Shown here in pieces: positions 28,029-60,782 of a DNA stretch of 60,852 bases. The notes under the pieces are model-generated. The model searched no databases. It was not told the DNA's origin and was given only the letters and a program-made list of their open reading frames with translations. The stretch spans positions 1 through 60,852 of the forward strand of contig JAIKYR010000043.1 in the NCBI GenBank assembly GCA_024682995.1, written 5' to 3'. Position 1 is the first letter of the stretch. Every line of letters starts with the position of its first letter. This DNA is from Bacteroidales bacterium (GTDB taxonomy: Bacteria; Bacteroidota; Bacteroidia; Bacteroidales; WCHB1-69). The position numbers were made by a program, and so were the translations under genes.

Positions 28029-28066
28029 CTATTAATTATTAATTGTTAATTGTTAATTGTTAATTG
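28029..28066 (-). repeat. Heptamer tandem repeat (CAATTAA)n supplying the uvrA stop
   Basis: caattaacaattaacaattaacaattaataattaatag on minus strand. Confidence 0.9.
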
Positions 28067-30894
28067 TTATTTGTCAGTTTCCCCGAGATGGCCTGTGCCG
28101 TATAAGAGCGTTTCCGTTCCACCAGTTTCTCAGGCGTACCCTCGAAAACGATCTTGCCACCCTGATCCCCGCCTTCCGGCCCCATATCGATGATCCAGTC
28201 GGCGCATTTGATGATTTCAGCATTATGCTCAATGACCACAATGGTGTTATTGCGTTCTATCAGGCGGTTAAAAGCCACGCATAATTTATTAATATCGTGG
28301 AAATGAAGTCCCGTAGTAGGCTCGTCGAAGATGAAGAGCTTGTTCTGGTCATCATCGTTGAGCGACAGATAGTAGGCTAACTTCACACGCTGCGCCTCGC
28401 CGCCGGACAGTGTAGCCGAAGACTGGCCCATCACCAGATAGCCGAGGCCCACATCCTGCAACGGCATCAATTTGCGGATAATATTGGTGGTCATATCATT
28501 CACGGGAAGGCCCTTGAAAAAATCGAGGGCTTCCGAGACTGTCATATTCAGGATGTCAGTGATAGTCTTGTCTTTCAGCTTGATATCCTGGGCTTCCTCT
28601 CGGAATCGGCTTCCATTGCACGAAGGGCACACCATCTCCACATCCGCCATAAACTGCATATTGATCCGGATAACGCCTTCGCCCTCGCACTCCTCGCATC
28701 GGCCACCAGCCACATTAAATGAAAAGAAGCTGGGCTTGTAGTTGCGCTGCTTGGAAAGAGGCTGGCTGGCAAACAACTCGCGAATATAATCGTAGGCTTT
28801 CACGTATGTTACAGGATTAGAGCGGCTGGAGCGGCCTATGGGATTCTGATCCACAAATACCACATCCGAAATCTTGGTCAAGTCGGCATCGATTCTCGAA
28901 TAGCGTCCGGGTTTCAGATTCCCCTTGTTGAGCATCTTCAGCAGGCCGGGGTACAGCACATTCGCTATCAGACTGCTCTTGCCGGAACCACTGACCCCTG
29001 TGATGACCGTGAAGCACTCCAACGGGATTTTCACATCTATATTCTTAAGATTATGCTCTTTAGCCCCGATGATTTCCACATAATTGCGCCAGTGTCTCCG
29101 CCGCTTGGGCAGCGGGATATAGCGGCATAACTCCTGCGGATAACCACCTGTCATCCCACGCAGATAGGAGGCCGTAAGGTTGTCCGGTTCTTTCATCAAA
29201 TCATCTATCAAACCTGAGAAAACTATTTCGCCACCATTACGTCCCGCTTTGGGGCCGATATCTATGATGCAGTCGGCGGCACGGATGATAGACTCATCGT
29301 GTTCAACCACCACCACGGTATTGCCAATGTCACGCAACCTCTGCAGCACCCGTATCAGGTTCTGCGTGTCGCGGGAATGGAGTCCGATGCTGGGTTCATC
29401 CAACACATAAAGAGAACCCACCAGACTGCTACCCAAGGAGGTGGCCAGGTTGATACGCTGGGCCTCCCCGCCCGACAATGTTGACGTGGAGCGGTCCAAG
29501 GTAAGATAGCCGAGGCCCACATCATCCAGCAATGCCACCCGATTGGCGAGTTCCTTCACCAGACGGGAGGCCACCTCGCGCTCATAGTCACTGCTGTATT
29601 TGAACTCCTGGAAAAAGGGTTTCAATTCTGAGACAGGCATGGCTGTCAACTCCATGATGGAGTGTCCCTTCACCTTCACATAATGTGCATCCTTGCGCAG
29701 ACGGGTCCCGTGGCAGTCGGGACAAATCTCCCGTCCACGGTAACGGGCCTGCAGTACCCGGTATTGAATTTTGAATGTGTTGGCCGCCACAAACTGGAAA
29801 AATTGCGTAATACCATCCACATGGTGTTTCTCATCCCCATACCACAAAAGGTCGTACTCCTTTGGACTCAAATCCTCAATAGCCCTGTGTACAGGGAAAT
29901 CGAGGCGGGAAGCCTGGCGGATGAACTGGCGTTTCCACTCGCTGAGCACGTCGCCATGCCAGCATGCCACTGCGTCGTCGGCCACCGACAATGTCTTGTC
30001 CGGAAACACCAAGTCCGGGTCCACGCCCTCCACCATACCAGTGCCGGAACAGGTCTTGCACGCGCCGTACGGGTTGTTGAAACTGAACAGGTTGGCACTC
30101 GGTTCCTCGAAACTCATCCCATCGGCCTCGAAAAGGTCGCTGAATGTCTTCTGGGAGACGTTGTCCCCCTCTGTTTGGATGACACACACACCCTTTCCTT
30201 CAGAGAAGGCTATCTGGATGGAGTCGGTAAGGCGTGCGATATTGTCGGCTATCTTCTCCGACTTGAAACGGTCCACCAGCACGAACATGCCCGACTCACG
30301 GGTGGCCTTTCGGCCTTTCAGGAACTCGTCAATTTCATGCAGCTGCCGATTATAGACCACACGGCTGAAGCCCTGCTGGCTGAGGATAGCGAGCTGTTCC
30401 TTCAAGGTGCGCCCTGACGGCAGCACTACTGGGGCAAGGACATACACTCTCTTGCCTTCGGGTACTTTCTGTACGTATGCCAGCACGTCCGACACACGCT
30501 CGCGCTTCACCTCCTTGCCCGATATCGGCGATATGGTGCGCCCGATACGGGCGAAGAGCAGTTTCAGATATTCGTATATTTCTGTCACCGTGCCCACCGT
30601 GGAGCGCGGGTTATGCGACATGCTATGCTGTTCGATGGCTATGGCGGGGGGTATGCCCGTGATGGATTGGACTTCGGGTTTGTGCATCCGGCCCATGAAC
30701 TGGCGGGCATAGGAACTGAGACTTTCCACGTAGCGACGCTGACCCTCGGCATACAGTGTGTCAAAAGCCAACGACGACTTGCCCGACCCCGACAAACCGG
30801 TGATGACCACCAGTTTGTTGCGCGGTATGTCAACATCTATGTTTTTCAGATTGTTGACTTTGGCACCCCGAACTTCAATCACCTTCTGACCCAT
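28060..30894 (-). CDS. uvrA: Excinuclease ABC subunit A
   Basis: Two Walker A motifs ([18 protein letters not shown]), two LSGGEAQR signatures, CxxC zinc modules. Confidence 0.97.
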
Positions 30895-44128: not shown

Positions 44129-45502
44129 ATGAATTATCGAATCGAAAAAGACACGCTCGGCGAGATGCGCGTTGAAGCGGACAAATTATGGGGAGCGCAA
44201 ACGCAGCGCGCCATGGAGAATTTCGTCATCGGCAAGAAAAAGATGCCGATTGAGATCATCTACGGCATCGCCACGGCCAAGAAGGCCGCCGCATGCGCCA
44301 ACTGCGATCTGGGGGTACTGCCCACCGACAAACGCGACCTTATCGTAGCCGCCTGCGACGAAATCCTAGCTGGCCAGTGGGACGACCAGTTCCCGTTGCA
44401 TATCTGGCAGACCGGTTCGGGCACGCAGACCAACATGAACGTCAACGAGGTAATCGCCCACCGCGGCCAGCAGCTGCACGGCGGAAAGCTGGACGACTAT
44501 CCGCTCTATCTCTCGCCCAATGACGATGTTAACAAGTCGCAGTCCACCAACGACATCTTCCCCACAGGCATGCGCATCGCCGCCACCAAGATGCTGCTCA
44601 CGCACACCATCCCAGCCATTTTGGATATCATGAAGACCTATCAGGAGAAGATTGTCGAATACGCCGACATCCGCAAGATCGGGCGCACACACCTGATGGA
44701 CGCCACCCCGCTCACCCTCGGGCAGGAGCTCTCTGGCCATCTGTCGCAAATTGAGCATGGACTGGACTCGCTGCTCAAGAGCATGGAGCACCTCAAGGAG
44801 CTGCCCATTGGCGGCACGGCAGTGGGCAACGGCATCAACGCTCCGGAAGGCTACGACAAGCTGGCGCTCCAATACATCAACACCATCACCGGGCTTGATT
44901 TCGTGAACACGCCCAACAAGTTCGAGGCTATGGCCTCCCACGACTCGCTGGCCGAAGTGTCCGGCGCACTGAAACGCTTGGCCATCTCGTTCATGAAGAT
45001 CGCCAACGACTTCCGGCTGCTCAACTCGGGCCCGCGCTGCGGTATCGGCGAAGTGGTGCTGCCTGCCAACGAGCCCGGCTCGTCCATCATGCCAGGGAAA
45101 GTGAACCCCACGCAGTGTGAAGCCCTCTCGCAAGTGTGCTGCCAAGTCATCGGCAATGACGTGGCTATCACCACGGGCGCCATGCAGGGCCACCTGCAAC
45201 TCAACGTCTTCATGCCCCTCATCGGGCGCGACCTCCTGCAGTCTTCCCGCCTGCTGGCCGACGTGATCCGCTCCTTCAACGACCATTGCCTGAAAGGTAT
45301 CACGCCCAACCGCGAACGCATCCGCATGCACCTCAACAACTCCCTCATGCTGGTCACCAAGCTGAGCCCCGTCATCGGATACTACAACGCGGCCAAGATC
45401 GCCCAACATGCCCTCAACGAAGGCCTTACCCTGCGCGAAGCCGCCCTCGAACTGAAACTTATCAGCGAAGAAGAGTTTGATAAGTGGATGGATGTCAATT
45501 AA
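44129..45502 (+). CDS. fumC: Class II fumarate hydratase
   Basis: WGAQTQR, WQTGSGTQTNMN, GRTHLMDA, GSSIMPGKVNP. Confidence 0.95.
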   Translation: MNYRIEKDTLGEMRVEADKLWGAQTQRAMENFVIGKKKMPIEIIYGIATAKKAAACANCDLGVLPTDKRDLIVAACDEILAGQWDDQFPLHIWQTGSGTQTNMNVNEVIAHRGQQLHGGKLDDYPLYLSPNDDVNKSQSTNDIFPTGMRIAATKMLLTHTIPAILDIMKTYQEKIVEYADIRKIGRTHLMDATPLTLGQELSGHLSQIEHGLDSLLKSMEHLKELPIGGTAVGNGINAPEGYDKLALQYINTITGLDFVNTPNKFEAMASHDSLAEVSGALKRLAISFMKIANDFRLLNSGPRCGIGEVVLPANEPGSSIMPGKVNPTQCEALSQVCCQVIGNDVAITTGAMQGHLQLNVFMPLIGRDLLQSSRLLADVIRSFNDHCLKGITPNRERIRMHLNNSLMLVTKLSPVIGYYNAAKIAQHALNEGLTLREAALELKLISEEEFDKWMDVN

Positions 45503-45620
45503 CAATTAACAATTAATAATTAATAGGGAGAGAAGGGAAAGGTTTGTTAGTGTAAAGGTATTAAAGTAAAAGGTTCAAGGTTCATTGTCAAAACTCTTAA
45601 TTTCTTAACTCCTTAGTTTC
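45496..45620 (+). repeat. Mosaic of short tandem-repeat arms between fumC and prsW
   Basis: (caattaa)n at 45496-45526, gtttgt..gtaaaggtatt arm at 45542-45566, aggttcaaggttca at 45571-45584, 9-mer ttaactcct-type units at 45594-45620. Confidence 0.75.
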
Positions 45621-55649: not shown

Positions 55650-56348
55650 ATGCGTCATTTATTGTTATTACAGGCCGATTCCGGTGCCATGCCGGTTGTT
55701 GCCGAACAGGCCTCCCAAGTGCAGGAGACCTCCTATTTCCAACTTGTATTTGCGCTCAACAGCTTATGGATTATGATCCCGCTGTTTCTCATGCTGGGCT
55801 TCGCCATCTACCTGTTTGTCAAGAAGCTGATGGTGCTGAACCGTGCCTCCAAGGAGGAATACAACTTCATGAACAACATCCGCGACTTCATCCACGATGG
55901 CAAGCTGGACTCCGCCATGGCGCTTTGCAAGGGCAACGACAATCCGTCGGCCCGTCTGATTGAGAAGGGTCTTACGCGCATCGGCCGCCCACTGGATGAT
56001 GTGCGCACTGCCGTGGAGAACGAAGGTAACATTGAGGTAGGCCGTCTGGAGAAAGGCGTGTCCGCGCTGGCCACCATCGCCGCCATCGCCCCGATGCTCG
56101 GATTCTTGGGTACTGTCGTGGGTATGGTCTCCGCCTTCCACAACATGGCCGCCGACCCGAACAACTTCAACATCGGCACCCTGTCATCTGGCATCTACAC
56201 CGCCATGATCACCACCGTGGCCGGTCTTATCGTCGGCGTCATCGCCCTGGTGTTCCACAACATGATCGTTTCCAAGATCTCCAACGTGGTCTATATGCTG
56301 GAGGTCCGCACCACAGAGTTCATGGACCTGCTTCACGAAAACGTCTAA
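55650..56348 (+). CDS. exbB: MotA/TolQ/ExbB proton channel protein
   Basis: APMLGFLGTVVGM, GIYTAMITTVAGL. Confidence 0.9.
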   Translation: MRHLLLLQADSGAMPVVAEQASQVQETSYFQLVFALNSLWIMIPLFLMLGFAIYLFVKKLMVLNRASKEEYNFMNNIRDFIHDGKLDSAMALCKGNDNPSARLIEKGLTRIGRPLDDVRTAVENEGNIEVGRLEKGVSALATIAAIAPMLGFLGTVVGMVSAFHNMAADPNNFNIGTLSSGIYTAMITTVAGLIVGVIALVFHNMIVSKISNVVYMLEVRTTEFMDLLHENV

Positions 56349-56360
56349 AAAAGCTCCGCC

Positions 56361-56801
56361 ATGGCTATCAAGATGCAAAACAAAATCGATACGACGTTCA
56401 GCGCCACGTCCATGTCCGACTTGGTGTTCCTGTTGTTGATTTTCTTCATGCTCACCTCCACGATGGTCTCCCCGAACGCCATCAACCTGGTGCTCCCGAA
56501 GAGCAACACAGACAAGCAGCTCGTATCCAAGAACATAGAGGTCTATATCAACGAAGACCTCCTCTACTTTGTCAATCCGGGAGGTTCCAAGGCGCAGCCC
56601 ATCCCGTTTGAGGAGTTGCTGCCAGCCCTTCAGGATGCCGCCGCCAAGGACAACTCCGACATGAAATCCATCGTGTTGCGCGCCGACAAGAGCGTACCTG
56701 TGGAGAATGTGGTTGCCCTCATGGACGTGCTCAATGAAATGAACGAAGCCTACCCGGAAGGGGAACGCTATAAAATGGTTTTAGCCACCGAAGGGAAATG
56801 A
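56361..56801 (+). CDS. exbD: Biopolymer transport ExbD/TolR protein
   Basis: SMSDLVFLLLIFFM, LP, LRADK. Confidence 0.9.
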   Translation: MAIKMQNKIDTTFSATSMSDLVFLLLIFFMLTSTMVSPNAINLVLPKSNTDKQLVSKNIEVYINEDLLYFVNPGGSKAQPIPFEELLPALQDAAAKDNSDMKSIVLRADKSVPVENVVALMDVLNEMNEAYPEGERYKMVLATEGK

Positions 56802-57493
56802 GAGAATCGAACGAGAATAGAAAAGACACTATCGTATCCTGGGGAACGACGGTCGGCACAATGGCACTCATCATTGTGTTGCTGCTTGCCTTCGGCCTGA
56901 AGTCCCAGATTCCACCTCCACCGCCCAAGAAGACCTTCTACGTAGAACTGGAAGCTCCGACGGGTGGTGGCGGCGGCGGTGGCATGGACGCTCCCTCTCC
57001 CACTCATTCCCGTCAACCCTCGGCTCCCAACTACGCCACCCAGAACGCACAAGACGCGCCTTCCGTGGCCCATTCCACCAAAACATCCACCACCCCGCAG
57101 CCCACACAACCTAAAGTGGACCAGACGGCCATTTTCAAAGGCGGCAAAGGTGGTAGTGGAAGCGGCGGCGGCCAAGGTTCCGGCATCGGCACGGGCACAG
57201 GCTCCGGCCTCGGTCCCGGCGAAGGCGGTGGCTCGGGCGGCGGCATCGGCTACGGCACGGGCGCAAGAGGCATGGTGAACAATATTAATACAACTGTTTC
57301 TGAAGAGGGACAGGTAAGTGTGGAAGTTCATGTGATGGCCGACGGCACCGTCAGTGAAGCCCGCGTGGTGAACACATCGAAAAACAAAACCACTATCACC
57401 AATCGCCTCATTCAACAGCAATGTGTGCAAGAAGCAAAACGAGCTCACTACAAACCAGGGAAAGAGGAATTAAGAATAATTTTATTCCACTAA
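56798..57493 (+). CDS. TonB-like energy transducer
   Basis: N-terminal TM, Pro/Gly-rich linker, EEGQVSVEVHV..DG.V..AR C-terminal domain. Confidence 0.75.
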   Translation: MRESNENRKDTIVSWGTTVGTMALIIVLLLAFGLKSQIPPPPPKKTFYVELEAPTGGGGGGGMDAPSPTHSRQPSAPNYATQNAQDAPSVAHSTKTSTTPQPTQPKVDQTAIFKGGKGGSGSGGGQGSGIGTGTGSGLGPGEGGGSGGGIGYGTGARGMVNNINTTVSEEGQVSVEVHVMADGTVSEARVVNTSKNKTTITNRLIQQQCVQEAKRAHYKPGKEELRIILFH

Positions 57494-57496
57494 TAA

Positions 57497-58040
57497 ACGC
57501 GAAGGGCGTGAAGGACGCAAAGTGTTCGCAAAGTCTTTATAATCCATTCACAATCCGCTTGATTCCCTGCTTCATCAATTCCACATTGAAGTTCATCAGC
57601 AATCCTAACTTATAACCTCCCAGTCGAAGATATGTCAACGTTTGCGCCATGTGAATACCTGCCAAAGCAGCCACGCTTTTTGTTTCAATCACCACTTTCT
57701 GATCAACTAATAAATCAATTCGAAAGGCGTGCTCAATAACGATATCGTAATATATTATAGGTAAATATTTTTCCTTCTCCACCCGCAAGTCTCGAGATAG
57801 TAACTCATAAAACATACATTCTTGGTATGTCTTCTCCAATAATCCCGGCCCCAGATACTTATGTACTTTCACCGCCGCATCCACAATAATCCGCGCCAAT
57901 TCATTCTCACTCATAACCAACCATTTTTAACATAACACTATATGTAAAACATTAATATCATTAAATTATTGCATAAAAAACAATAAAAATAAAAAAATAT
58001 TAATCCCAATAATTCTTTGCGTCCTTCGTGTCCTTTGCGT
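57497..58040. mobile_element. GxxExxY cassette bounded by 26-bp tandem-unit inverted repeats
   Basis: Left arm 57497-57522, right arm 58015-58040; AT-rich interior; antisense to host operon. Confidence 0.75.
57537..57914 (-). CDS. GxxExxY protein (PD-(D/E)XK-like nuclease fold)
   Basis: VH..LGPGLLEKTY, RIDLLV...VVIETKSV, AQ.LTYL...GLLMNF. Confidence 0.93.
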   Translation of the reverse strand: MSENELARIIVDAAVKVHKYLGPGLLEKTYQECMFYELLSRDLRVEKEKYLPIIYYDIVIEHAFRIDLLVDQKVVIETKSVAALAGIHMAQTLTYLRLGGYKLGLLMNFNVELMKQGIKRIVNGL

Positions 58041-58043
58041 ATC

Positions 58044-59330
58044 ATGTATAACTCCCTTCTCGAAGAAATATTCCACGCCTACCCGATGTACCATAAAGTT
58101 GGGACGGCAGCATATAAAGAGGGCCTCGAGAATATCGAAGCCCTGTTGCAAATCGTGGGCAATCCTGAAAGAAAACTCAAAGCCATACACATCGCCGGCA
58201 CCAACGGCAAAGGCTCCGTGGCCCATCTCACCGCCTCCTATTGCCAGGAACGCGGACTGAAGACCGGCCTCTTTACCTCCCCACATCTGGTGGACTTCCG
58301 CGAACGCATCCGCATCAACGGCGTAATGATTCCTGAAGAAAAAGTGCTTGAGTTCTTCCAGAAATTCAAACCCTCTTTCAACAAACTCGAACCCTCTTTC
58401 TTTGAGATGACTACTGCTTTGGCGTTCTGGTATTTCGCCGAGCAGCATGTGGATGTCGCCGTGGTGGAAGTGGGCCTCGGCGGGCGGCTTGACGCCACCA
58501 ACGTACTCTCCCCCATCCTCTCCGTCATCACCAACATCACTCTGGAACACACCAACTTGTTAGGCGACAGCATTGCCAAAATAGCCTTCGAAAAAGCCGG
58601 CATCATCAAACAGGACACCCCCGTGGTTGTGGGCGAATTTCACCCGGAAAGCTATCCCGTCTTCACCGACATTGCCAACCAGAAAAACGCCCCGCTCTTC
58701 TTAGCGGAAAACAATTTCTCCGTGGAGGGCAATCTCTCCGACTGCAAAATCCTTGACATGGAGGGTGAAACCCTTTATGAGCACGTGCACACCCCTCTCG
58801 AAGGCGAATACCAGCGTAAAAACCTCGTCACATTCCTGCAAGTGGCGGAACTGCTCCAGCAAATAATGCCCTATGACAAGGATGTCACCGTGCAGGCCAT
58901 TGAACACGTTACGACTAACACGGGACTGTGCGGGCGCTGGCAGGTGCTGCGCCGCGAGCCGCTCACCATCTGCGACGTGGGACACAATCTCGGCGGGTTG
59001 AGCCTCACCATGAAGCAATTGGCTGACATTCCCTGCCGACAGCTACGTATGGTGTTCGGCATGGCCGCCGACAAGGACCTTGACCATATCCTACCACTCT
59101 TGCCCTCAAAAGCAAAATATTACGTTTGCCAAGCGCCTACCAACCGAGCCATTGTCGCGGAGGAGTTATCCAGCCGTCTGACGGCTCTCGGGTTGTCGTG
59201 CACCACCATTCCCGATGTGTGCGAGGCGTTCCGAAAAGCCAACAGCGATGCCGCGCCCGACGACATAGTATTCATCGGAGGAAGCTGCTTCGTCGTGGGT
59301 GAGCTCCTCTCCCATCTCTTCCTCTCTTAA
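58044..59330 (+). CDS. folC: Bifunctional folylpolyglutamate synthase/dihydrofolate synthase
   Basis: HIAGTNGKGS, TSPHL..FRERIRING, EVGLGGRLDATN, GRWQ, DVGHN. Confidence 0.96.
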   Translation: MYNSLLEEIFHAYPMYHKVGTAAYKEGLENIEALLQIVGNPERKLKAIHIAGTNGKGSVAHLTASYCQERGLKTGLFTSPHLVDFRERIRINGVMIPEEKVLEFFQKFKPSFNKLEPSFFEMTTALAFWYFAEQHVDVAVVEVGLGGRLDATNVLSPILSVITNITLEHTNLLGDSIAKIAFEKAGIIKQDTPVVVGEFHPESYPVFTDIANQKNAPLFLAENNFSVEGNLSDCKILDMEGETLYEHVHTPLEGEYQRKNLVTFLQVAELLQQIMPYDKDVTVQAIEHVTTNTGLCGRWQVLRREPLTICDVGHNLGGLSLTMKQLADIPCRQLRMVFGMAADKDLDHILPLLPSKAKYYVCQAPTNRAIVAEELSSRLTALGLSCTTIPDVCEAFRKANSDAAPDDIVFIGGSCFVVGELLSHLFLS

Positions 59331-59383
59331 CTCCTTAACTTCTTAGTTTCTTAATTCATCCCTCTGATTACACTTAAAACAAT

Positions 59384-59424
59384 AAAAAAGAGGACAACCT
59401 TTCGGTCGTCCTCTTCATTTTTTT
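59384..59424. terminator. Bidirectional terminator between folC and gdhA
   Basis: aaaaaagaggacaacc-tttc-ggtcgtcctctt. Confidence 0.8.
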
Positions 59425-59438
59425 GGCTAAACTGTCGA

Positions 59439-60782
59439 TTAGATGATACCTTGAGCTAACATAGCTTTTGCAACGCGCATGAAACCGGCGATGTTGGCAC
59501 CCTTCACATAGTTGATGGTACCATCAGCCTCACGACCGTGCTCAACGCACATGTCGTAAATGTCGTTCATGATCTTGTGCAGTTTGGCGTCAACCTCAGG
59601 AGCCGTCCAGTTGATGTGACCGGCGTTCTGGCAGATCTCGAGACCAGAGGTAGCAACACCACCGGCGTTGACAGCCTTACCAGGTCCGAACGGAACCTTA
59701 GCGGCTTGGAAAGCAGCGATAGCGCCGGGTTGGCAACCCATGTTGGAGACCTCAGCAACGTATTTAACGCCGTTAGCAAGGAGTTCCTTAGCGTCTTCTT
59801 CGCTCAACTCGTTCTGGAAAGCGCACGGGCAAGCGATGTCGCACTTCACGCTCCAAGCTTTCTTGCCGGCCGTGAATTTGGCTTTACCAGGGAATTTGTC
59901 GGCCATGTCTTGAACTTTGTTGCGGTTGGAAGCACGCATGTCAAGCATATAGTCAATCATTTCTTTGTCGATGCCGTCAGGAAGTTCGCAGACGCCGTCG
60001 GGACCGGAGATGGCCACAACCTTAGCGCCGAGTTCGGTAGCCTTGGTGGCAGCACCCCAAGCAACGTTACCGAAGCCGGAGAGGGCGATGCGTTTGCCTT
60101 CCATCGTGTCATTCTGTTGTTTTACCATGCGTTCCACATAGTAGATAGCACCGAAACCGGTAGCTTCCGGACGGATGAGGGAACCACCCCAGCCATAGCT
60201 CTTTCCAGTGAGGGCACCGGTAGAATGCTCGCGGGCGAGTTTCTTATAAGCACCGTAGAGGTAGCCGATCTCACGACCGCCAACACCCACGTCGCCTGCA
60301 GGGCTGTCCTGATCAGGACCGATGTTGCGCCACAATTCATACATGAAGGCTTGGCAGAAACGCATGATTTCAGCGTCGCTCTTGCCAACGGGATCGAAAT
60401 CGGAGCCACCCTTGCCACCGCCGAGAGGCAGATTGGTCAGAGAGTTTTTGAAGATCTGTTCGAAACCTAAGAACTTCAACATGGAGACGTTAACAGCCTT
60501 GTGGAAACGGAGACCGCCCTTGTATGCGCCGAGAGCAGCATTGAATTGGACGCGGTAGCCGAGGTTCGTGCAAACCTCACCCTTGTCGTTAACCCAGGTC
60601 ACGCGGAATGTGAAGATACGATCGGGTTCAACAATGCGCTCAACGATCTTGGCAGCCTCGAATTCGGGGTGCTTGTTGTATTCTTCTTCAATCGTTTCCA
60701 GGACTTCGCGAACGGCCTGCAAATACTCATTCTCACCAGGATGTTTGGCCTCCAGGTTAGCCATGATTTCATTTACTTTCAT
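59439..60782 (-). CDS. gdhA: Glutamate dehydrogenase (NAD(P)-dependent, hexameric GdhA type)
   Basis: YKGGLRFH, GGGKGGSDF, PAGDVGVG, RPEATG, GFGNV, NAGGVATS. Confidence 0.96.
   Translation of the reverse strand: MKVNEIMANLEAKHPGENEYLQAVREVLETIEEEYNKHPEFEAAKIVERIVEPDRIFTFRVTWVNDKGEVCTNLGYRVQFNAALGAYKGGLRFHKAVNVSMLKFLGFEQIFKNSLTNLPLGGGKGGSDFDPVGKSDAEIMRFCQAFMYELWRNIGPDQDSPAGDVGVGGREIGYLYGAYKKLAREHSTGALTGKSYGWGGSLIRPEATGFGAIYYVERMVKQQNDTMEGKRIALSGFGNVAWGAATKATELGAKVVAISGPDGVCELPDGIDKEMIDYMLDMRASNRNKVQDMADKFPGKAKFTAGKKAWSVKCDIACPCAFQNELSEEDAKELLANGVKYVAEVSNMGCQPGAIAAFQAAKVPFGPGKAVNAGGVATSGLEICQNAGHINWTAPEVDAKLHKIMNDIYDMCVEHGREADGTINYVKGANIAGFMRVAKAMLAQGII

Follow-up and report, generated by a model that had tools for sequence, protein, structure and literature searches.

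A GxxExxY nuclease cassette with inverted tandem-repeat arms between a tonB-like gene and folC in a Bacteroidales bacterium, and its likeness to rRNA intervening sequences

The window analyzed here, a 60,852-nucleotide (nt) stretch of DNA from a Bacteroidales bacterium (contig JAIKYR010000043.1), carries at positions 57497-58040 a compact cassette lodged between a tonB-like gene and folC. The cassette consists of a small gene of the GxxExxY family, predicted to encode a PD-(D/E)XK nuclease, bracketed by two inverted arrays of short tandem units. To judge from the sequences of related loci, this cassette and sister cassettes around the four-helix-bundle "IVS protein" of ribosomal RNA (rRNA) intervening sequences (IVS) share one build. 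The element was therefore read as the resident copy of a widespread IVS-type cassette of Bacteroidota situated outside rRNA, old and maintained, whose stem would be cut and not rejoined in read-through RNA; for this reading as a whole, we consider the case for and the case against to be evenly balanced.

The cassette at the tonB-folC junction

The left arm (acgcgaagggcgtgaaggacgcaaag, 57497-57522) and the right arm (ctttgcgtccttcgtgtcctttgcgt, 58015-58040) are each 26 nt long and, aligned without gaps, form 22 Watson-Crick pairs and four transition mismatches, each a G-U on the + strand and an A-C on the - strand. The inverted-repeat score of the locus was above chance (40, against a 95th percentile of 26 among 158 positional controls), and the cassette ranked 11th among 1800 genes of its own genome scored in the same way. 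When the RNA of 57480-58060 was folded, the + strand gave an unbroken helix of 26 base pairs (bp) in both the minimum free energy (MFE) and the centroid structure (z = -4.27; 0/100 shuffles as good), whereas the helix of the - strand was interrupted (z = -1.07; 14/100 shuffles as good). Closure of the stem brings the tonB stop and the folC start to within 6 nt of each other. The initial annotation of this DNA had described a discrete cassette closed by a long stem, and its account of the arms, their 22/26 complementarity, the four G-U pairs and the 6-nt geometry was borne out by the sequence. The left arm is identical at 26/26 positions in the window and the sister species L032 and L033, and three of the four mismatches are C-to-T changes in the right arm relative to L032. 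A tandem-unit scan with a strict pattern found no tandem units of the window arm type elsewhere in the genome, and Rfam returned no ribozyme, intron, or other family match to the cassette (E ≤ 1). The parts of the cassette are as follows.

57497..57522: left arm, three tandem 8-9-nt units (acgcgaagg, gcgtgaagg, acgcaaag), on the 3' side of the cargo gene
57537..57920, - strand: cargo gene, GxxExxY / PD-(D/E)XK nuclease (PF13366, TIGR04256)
57921..58014, - strand: AT-rich region 5' of the cargo, presumed from its sequence to bear the promoter
58015..58040: right arm, inverse of the left, three 8-9-nt units (ctttgcgt, ccttcgtgt, cctttgcgt)

The cargo is 127 amino acids long if read from TTG at 57920 and 125 from ATG at 57914. 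It matched PF13366 (PDDEXK_3; 8e-39, 133.1 bits against a cut-off of 22) and TIGR04256 GxxExxY (5e-40, 136.5 bits against a cut-off of 35). The GxxExxY motif and the catalytic D69...E79-x-K81 are present; among 24 homologues, G26 and Y32 are invariant, and conservation reaches at least 90% at E29, E39, D69, E79, K81, Q93, and Y97. An AlphaFold2 (AF2) model built on the alignment of these homologues reached a predicted local distance difference test (pLDDT) score of 96.6, and its top Foldseek matches were Cas4 SSO0001 (E = 6.6e-4), lambda exonuclease/RecE, and Hjc resolvase, with template modeling (TM) scores of about 0.45-0.5. The model thus clearly places the predicted protein in the PD-(D/E)XK fold class, with no pointer to a specific enzyme or subfamily. 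Among solved structures there was no sequence relative of the cargo (best E-value, 0.25), and neither PADLOC nor PHROGs gave a match. A 2012 survey of the PD-(D/E)XK superfamily, in the part available, gives the function of PF13366 as unknown and refers to "multiple transfers." The cargo is the sole open reading frame (ORF) of the cassette and matches no family other than PF13366, and no transposase of known family is encoded. The nonsynonymous (dN) and synonymous (dS) divergences from the L033 cargo were 0.003 and 0.238, and those of another example pair were 0.059 and 0.75; with dN far below dS, the cargo is, on these comparisons, under purifying selection. The window genome has one copy of the gene.

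The host operon was assigned as follows.

55650..56348, + strand: exbB, MotA/ExbB proton channel, first gene of the host operon (PF01618, 7.7e-30)
56361..56801, + strand: exbD (PF02472, 3.3e-22)
56798..57493, + strand: TonB-like gene (ORF; TIGR01352 tonB_Cterm below cut-off)
58044..59330, + strand: folC (TIGR01499, 1.2e-109)

Profile searches confirmed exbB, exbD, and folC. The TonB assignment is weak (TIGR01352, 21.1 bits against a cut-off of 27.1); a TonB-like gene adjoining exbD is conserved in 23/30 genus loci examined. The TonB-like ORF ends in TAA at 57491-57493, and a second TAA follows at 57494-57496. From arm to arm, the cassette exactly occupies the tonB-folC spacer (57497-58040): the left arm begins 3 nt past the tonB stop, and the right arm ends 3 nt 5' of the folC ATG, with atc between.

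The same build around GxxExxY and PF05635 genes

The GxxExxY family was present in 32/41 related genomes, at 1 to 13 copies per genome, and in 83/151 genomes of a phylum sample. For loci drawn from the order and phylum samples, the 400 nt on either side of the gene were aligned under a scoring scheme in which G-U and A-C count the same, and the threshold was set at the 95th percentile of the 158 positional controls. Inverted arms above threshold flanked 70/92 GxxExxY loci and 7/158 controls, although loci of related genomes are not independent and locus counts therefore overstate the sample size. By this comparison, such arms characterize the family and are no peculiarity of the window locus. 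In a stricter 6-mer test, 60/92 loci had one unit repeated on the left and its reverse complement repeated in turn on the right.

The units vary by lineage (CGCAAAG in the window; CACAGAG, CACGGAT, CGCAGAT, GCGAAT, and others elsewhere), and the unit type tracks the clades of the GxxExxY protein. A purine-type core lay in the left arm at 48 of 55 classifiable loci and in the opposite arrangement at 7, a bias that common descent may explain. A fixed polarity of the purine-rich arm relative to the cargo was considered and rejected, as an inverted repeat reads alike on both strands. At some loci, one or both sides bear a full local hairpin made of units, a loop, and inverse units, and cargo-less hairpin modules adjoin full cassettes at L009, L036, and L082.

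Two paralogues within one genome are 91% identical over 481 nt comprising the gene and its arms, which supports the cassette as a unit; in one paralogue pair, homology ends 11-33 nt outside the arms. Placement at gene boundaries, as claimed in the initial annotation, was upheld by the distances between arms and genes. The arm starts no more than 10 nt past the stop of a co-directional upstream gene in 25/46 loci; the 3' arm lies no more than 30 nt before the next ATG in 19/34 cases and no more than 10 nt from a convergent stop in 13/23. The 5' arm sometimes leaves no space for a promoter before the cargo ATG. The GxxExxY cargo is co-directional with the upstream gene at 46 loci and antisense at 16, so that the antisense orientation of the window cassette is the exception.

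Two side observations concern the genomic setting. Cassettes occur as tandem pairs at L115 (G209:C4), at L118 (G105:C1), and at G031:C1 432148-434584, the two copies at L115 being 94% identical over 906 nt. Contigs also end within tens of nucleotides of a GxxExxY gene (G033:C242, G008:C89, G008:C64, and others); the arms probably break short-read assemblies. For annotation, this accounts for numerous contig breaks, and for small genes labeled "hypothetical," in Bacteroidota assemblies from gut and rumen.

Genes of PF05635, the four-helix-bundle "23S rRNA IVS protein" family, were found in 37/41 related genomes. The window genome (G000) has four of them, at C77:8152-8517(+), C40:2798-3151(-), C176:15760-16125(-), and C68:14264-14488; the three examined are all bracketed by inverted arrays of heptamer units. 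Across related genomes, inverted arms exceeded the control threshold at 28/29 PF05635 loci, with units of 6-8 nt that include GGCAATA, GACTTAA, GGCTAAC, and CGATTTA. In the unbiased scan of 1800 genes for flanking inverted repeats, PF05635 genes ranked 2nd, 7th, and 13th, alongside the 11th rank of GxxExxY. Ranks 1 and 3 of that scan were DUF559 genes, C55:9425-9736(+) and C21:44831-45256(+), which represent another small PD-(D/E)XK nuclease family (PF04480, 4.9e-24); their flanks are GC-rich local hairpins and not tandem units.

The published IVS of Coxiella shows the same elements in rRNA. According to the available text of its description (PMC4990558), it is 428 nt long, lies in helix 45, and contains an ORF from the S23p four-helix-bundle family, and its terminal inverted repeats pair into a 28-bp stem. 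Tandem GACAGAT heptamers, variable in number between strains, precede the ORF. RNase III removes the element in vitro with a cut at the first repeat, and excision of rRNA IVSs leaves fragments that are not religated (PMC4990558, same text). The comparison with rRNA IVSs made in the initial annotation was apt, given the architecture shared by the PF05635 loci and this published IVS with its 28-bp stem. Matches to 23S fragments were found at 0/149 cassette or junction loci. A literature search, which took in few subscription journals and neither family curation texts nor supplements, found no description of GxxExxY or PF05635 genes within inverted tandem arrays outside rRNA; the curation texts of TIGR04256 and TIGR02436 could already mention flanking repeats.

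Residence, loss, and exchange at the junction

The state of the tonB-folC junction was classified at 30 genus loci, those whose folC matched best, from 52 folC-positive genomes among 55; the 22 more distant ones were left out.

Intact cassette, always antisense: 10 loci
Degraded remnant: 1 locus (L034)
Solo right arm just before the folC ATG: 3 loci (L038, L039, L046)
Weaker arm remains: 2 loci
Clean, stop and start 1-81 nt apart: 7 loci (L055 reads TAAcATG)
tonB not upstream: 6 loci
Contig end: 1 locus

Empty tonB-folC alleles, which the initial annotation had proposed to look for, were thus found at 7/30 loci. At L038, L039, and L046, the solo right arm lies 4-8 nt before the folC ATG and the nuclease gene is gone, while the decaying copy at L034 (G046:C31) retains nuclease residues 66-127 between recognizable arms in a 274-nt spacer. 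On the folC tree, filled loci are spread over several well-supported clades, solo-arm loci group as sisters of filled loci (support 100/99), and the clean L055 is sister to the filled L052 (support 95/89). From these placements, a single old insertion followed by repeated loss appears to be the simplest history. Cargo and folC identities are also correlated (r = 0.74, 45 pairs). No target-site duplication was readable across the diverged empty and filled sites.

The initial annotation had further cast the cassette as a selfish element driven to spread by its nuclease. At tonB-folC it did not behave as an active invader: it is single-copy in the genome and vertically inherited. It was also considered whether recombination between the arms might flip the gene and its promoter, making the cassette an invertible, phase-variable segment. 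Invertible promoters are common in gut Bacteroidota, and inverted repeats do flank a segment with a promoter-like region here. However, the cargo orientation is identical in 10/10 filled orthologues, DNA contigs contained no strand-changing joint, and no recombinase gene is adjacent; on the first of these grounds the inverton reading was rejected, and almost no credence is left for it.

The arms grow and shrink in steps of whole units and have become long arrays in L050 and L052. At L036 and L037, left-side units stand in right-arm orientation; with units thus in direct orientation, a direct-repeat deletion would account for the solo arm left at the sister loci L038 and L039. Several side observations bear on the range of these arrays. 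At L052 (G016:C27), the left side holds about 7 three-unit modules and the right side a long CTCTTTG-type array, L050 (G007:C32) has about 10 modules on the right, and the tonB-folC spacers of L050 and L052 reach 1098 and 1030 nt. At L040 (G058:C17), a locus with no tonB upstream of folC, some 13 tandem GGCTAAA/GGCTAAT units, resembling PF05635 arms, run toward the folC start, 150 nt upstream.

Separately, window positions 56544-60143 and L032 (G024:C26) showed mosaic identity, with 97% in exbD/tonB, 99.5% in the cargo, and 85-91% in folC, and a switch near the right arm; dS was 0.024 for the cargo versus 0.514 for folC. This suggests interspecies recombination with a breakpoint at the cassette, as far as the sequences allow.

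Strand symmetry, the fate of the stem, and comparison with known systems

The initial annotation had proposed that arm mismatches would be G-U on the host-operon strand regardless of cargo orientation, and it had itself named strand-random mismatches as evidence to the contrary. The mismatches were strand-random. At 45 loci with co-directional neighbors, the host strand had 77 G-U versus 81 A-C, and at the 15 of these with antisense cargo the counts were 29 versus 32. Counted by cargo-sense versus antisense strand, the numbers were 145 versus 143 at GxxExxY loci and 51 versus 64 for PF05635 cassettes. Orthologues at the junction gave host-strand G-U:A-C ratios of 3:3 (L036), 1:2 (L047), 2:2 (L048), 4:4 (L050), 2:3 (L051), and 1:1 (L052); one-sided counts occurred only in the window and its two sister species (4:0, 1:0, 3:0), which share changes. 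Four of four mismatches on one strand corresponds to a two-sided p of 0.125, and judged by these sequences the all-G-U pattern of the window is most likely the chance outcome of four transitions. Selection on an RNA stem alone should favor G-U on the transcribed strand, an excess absent from these counts, and four one-sided wobble pairs at a single locus give no ground for inferring RNA-level selection.

These counts bear directly on the model of the initial annotation, in which a stem tuned to the host strand restores tonB-folC coupling at 6 nt by loop-out or excision. The model draws on the window's 4/4 G-U pairs with the 1:0 and 3:0 of its sisters, on the stronger fold of the + strand (z = -4.27 against -1.07), and on the short stop-start gaps of clean relatives (1-21 nt in this comparison), which make the closed geometry mimic the ancestral junction. 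Weighing against it are the balanced totals, orthologues and antisense cargo included, the shared changes that reduce the three sister loci to about four events, and the co-direction of most cassettes with their upstream gene (46 versus 16). Nothing pointed to rejoining of the message: there was no Rfam ribozyme or intron match, and known IVS excision proceeds without religation. The model was accordingly judged very improbable.

RNA-derived sequences from the locus are few. No joint skipping 57497-58040 was present in three metatranscriptome contig sets and one DNA set, in which cover was too thin to weigh on excision either way and most of the cassette had no RNA-library cover. One RNA-library contig spans 57416-57788, that is, the tonB end, the left arm, and the 3' half of the cargo, and a contig from a relative of 90-95% identity stops at 58036. 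The motif TAnnTTTG, which we take to be a -7 box of the Bacteroidota type, occurs 20-34 nt before the cargo start in 6/10 orthologues, with no exact match in the window clade. In the host sense, an exact TAnnTTTG 26-34 nt before the folC ATG was found only in L047 and L050, where it is created by arm modules.

The reading preferred here, that of an IVS-type cassette outside rRNA, runs as follows. The cassette entered the very short spacer between tonB and folC in an ancestor common to much of the genus and has been inherited vertically ever since, under purifying selection and with occasional loss. Its arms belong to the cassette lineage and are kept alike at the DNA level, in a strand-symmetric way. 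A tonB transcript reading through the junction would fold the arms into a 26-bp duplex, which RNase III may cut as it does rRNA IVS stems; through this cut the tonB and folC messages would come apart, the antisense cargo RNA would be lost, and nothing would be rejoined. By analogy with those stems, we infer that RNase III cuts the read-through stem in this manner.

Several points weigh against this reading. An rRNA location, the defining feature of an IVS, is lacking in a cassette that lies between a tonB-like gene and folC, and 23S genes were unassembled in 28/31 genus genomes searched (3 had pieces), which limits rRNA comparison within the genus. RNase III cleavage was not seen in the RNA-library contigs, which cannot show strand, ends, or level. 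Neither strand has an excess of G-U, so that, as far as the sequences go, RNA pairing is not established as what keeps the arms alike. The stem alone also gives no reason for an RCRRA-type unit core that recurs, by eye, across distant GxxExxY cassettes, or for arms as unequal in unit number as those of L050 and L052. Finally, in the 6/10 orthologues with a promoter-like TAnnTTTG, the motif lies inside the 5' arm, and the cargo mRNA would lack one arm. Because of the missing G-U excess, the recurrent core, and the unequal arms, we argue that the arms are under some constraint besides RNA pairing; a protein, possibly the cargo, may recognize the units, or the arms may be homogenized at the DNA level.

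The main rival carries this further and takes the cassette for a DNA-level element, in which the arms are repeated sites recognized by the cassette's own nuclease or by a partner, cutting at or near them drives duplication, homing, or excision, and the RNA stem is a by-product. The candidate target of the nuclease would be repeat DNA of the form (CGCAAAGG)n. Strand-symmetric mismatches are what such an element would show, and iterated units of variable spacing and number resemble protein-binding arrays. The unit type follows the nuclease phylogeny, with the purine core on the left in 48/55, but this correlation would also follow from plain co-inheritance. The conserved catalytic D-E-K, a dN far below dS, copy numbers of 1 to 13 per genome, paralogue homology that ends near the arms, and the clean L055 (TAAcATG) nested beside the filled L052 (95/89) are further points in its favor. 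However, the same architecture brackets PF05635 genes, whose products are not nucleases, there is neither a known transposase nor a readable target-site duplication, the window genome has one copy and no tandem arm units elsewhere, and the locus has stayed stable across most of the genus. On balance, this explanation is considered unlikely.

Tandem arrays as such are common in the window genome (2.6 Mb), which has 309 with periods of 6-10, 171 of them heptamers. Intergenic positions account for 205 of the 309, though only about 10% of the genome is intergenic. The commonest classes are AATAATT (28), AACAATT (24), and AAACTCT (11), and within the window arrays lie at 28032-28074 (TTAATTG x6.1), 45496-45523 (CAATTAA x4), and 45595-45620. 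Cyanobacterial short tandemly repeated repetitive (STRR) sequences are comparable short intergenic tandem units. Bacteroidetes, Cyanobacteria, and Beggiatoaceae are reported to carry direct heptamer repeats immediately upstream of start codons (MacGregor 2015, PMC4679880); the available part of that paper does not tie them to the GxxExxY or PF05635 families and describes no such cassettes.

The arms could accordingly be part of a genome-wide set of intergenic regulatory arrays, bound by cognate cargo proteins, with the right arm kept for folC expression. The abundance of intergenic arrays and the heptamers before start codons (PMC4679880, in the part available) fit this account, as do the solo right arms retained 4-8 nt before the folC ATG at L038, L039, and L046 and the TAnnTTTG motifs that arm modules create 26-34 nt before it in L047 and L050. 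Yet there are far more unit classes than cargo genes (one GxxExxY and four PF05635), the window arm unit occurs in tandem only at the window locus, clean junctions imply that folC needs no arm, and binding of the arrays by cargo proteins is putative. The account was judged quite doubtful.

A broader proposal would join these strands. GxxExxY nucleases and "IVS proteins" would be the protein partners of the heptamer-type intergenic arrays of Bacteroidota, Cyanobacteria, and Beggiatoaceae, each paralogue recognizing its own unit, and rRNA IVSs, cassettes, and solo arrays would form one repeat-guided processing or mobility system. This is a speculation in which little confidence is placed. In its general outline, the locus and its relatives suggest that rRNA IVSs, the two protein families, and intergenic tandem repeats belong together, since the stem-and-unit build of IVSs brackets both families at gene boundaries in genomes with hundreds of solo arrays. 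Such a link would bear on three long-unexplained matters: the nature and origin of rRNA IVSs, the function of GxxExxY and "IVS proteins," and the abundance of short intergenic tandem repeats.

Among known systems, transposons with terminal inverted repeats and miniature inverted-repeat transposable elements (MITEs) share with the cassette the terminal inverted repeats, the cargo-less hairpin modules, and a copy number that varies between genomes; the window cassette differs in having no recognized transposase or readable target-site duplication and in its long, stable residence at one site. Repetitive extragenic palindromic (REP) sequences with their REP-associated tyrosine transposases (RAYTs), and REPINs (hairpin-forming pairs of REP sequences), are presumably alike in that inverted hairpin-forming repeats flank a nucleic-acid enzyme gene that is single-copy and inherited vertically. 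The enzyme in the window is a predicted PD-(D/E)XK nuclease and not a Y1 transposase, however, the arm units are tandem and 8-9 nt long, and no dispersed copies of the unit were found in the genome. The TAACTGA-type heptamer repeats, so far as the available text of PMC4679880 describes them, are alike in their tandem units of about 7-9 nt, their intergenic position a few nucleotides from a start or stop, their occurrence in Bacteroidota, and their change by whole units, whereas the window arrays are two, inverted, and placed around a specific small gene. The 23S rRNA IVSs of Coxiella, Leptospira, Salmonella, and others differ in lying in 23S helix 25 or 45 and not between protein-coding genes; the window cassette, for its part, has a PD-(D/E)XK nuclease cargo antisense to the host transcript, and its excision by RNase III is proposed by analogy. 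They correspond to it, in the portion of the published account available, as inserts of a few hundred nucleotides with terminal inverted repeats, a stem of about 26-28 bp, and heptamer-like tandem units, varying in number between strains, in the arm beside a small ORF; and the family of that ORF, S23p/PF05635, has this very build in relatives of the window genome.

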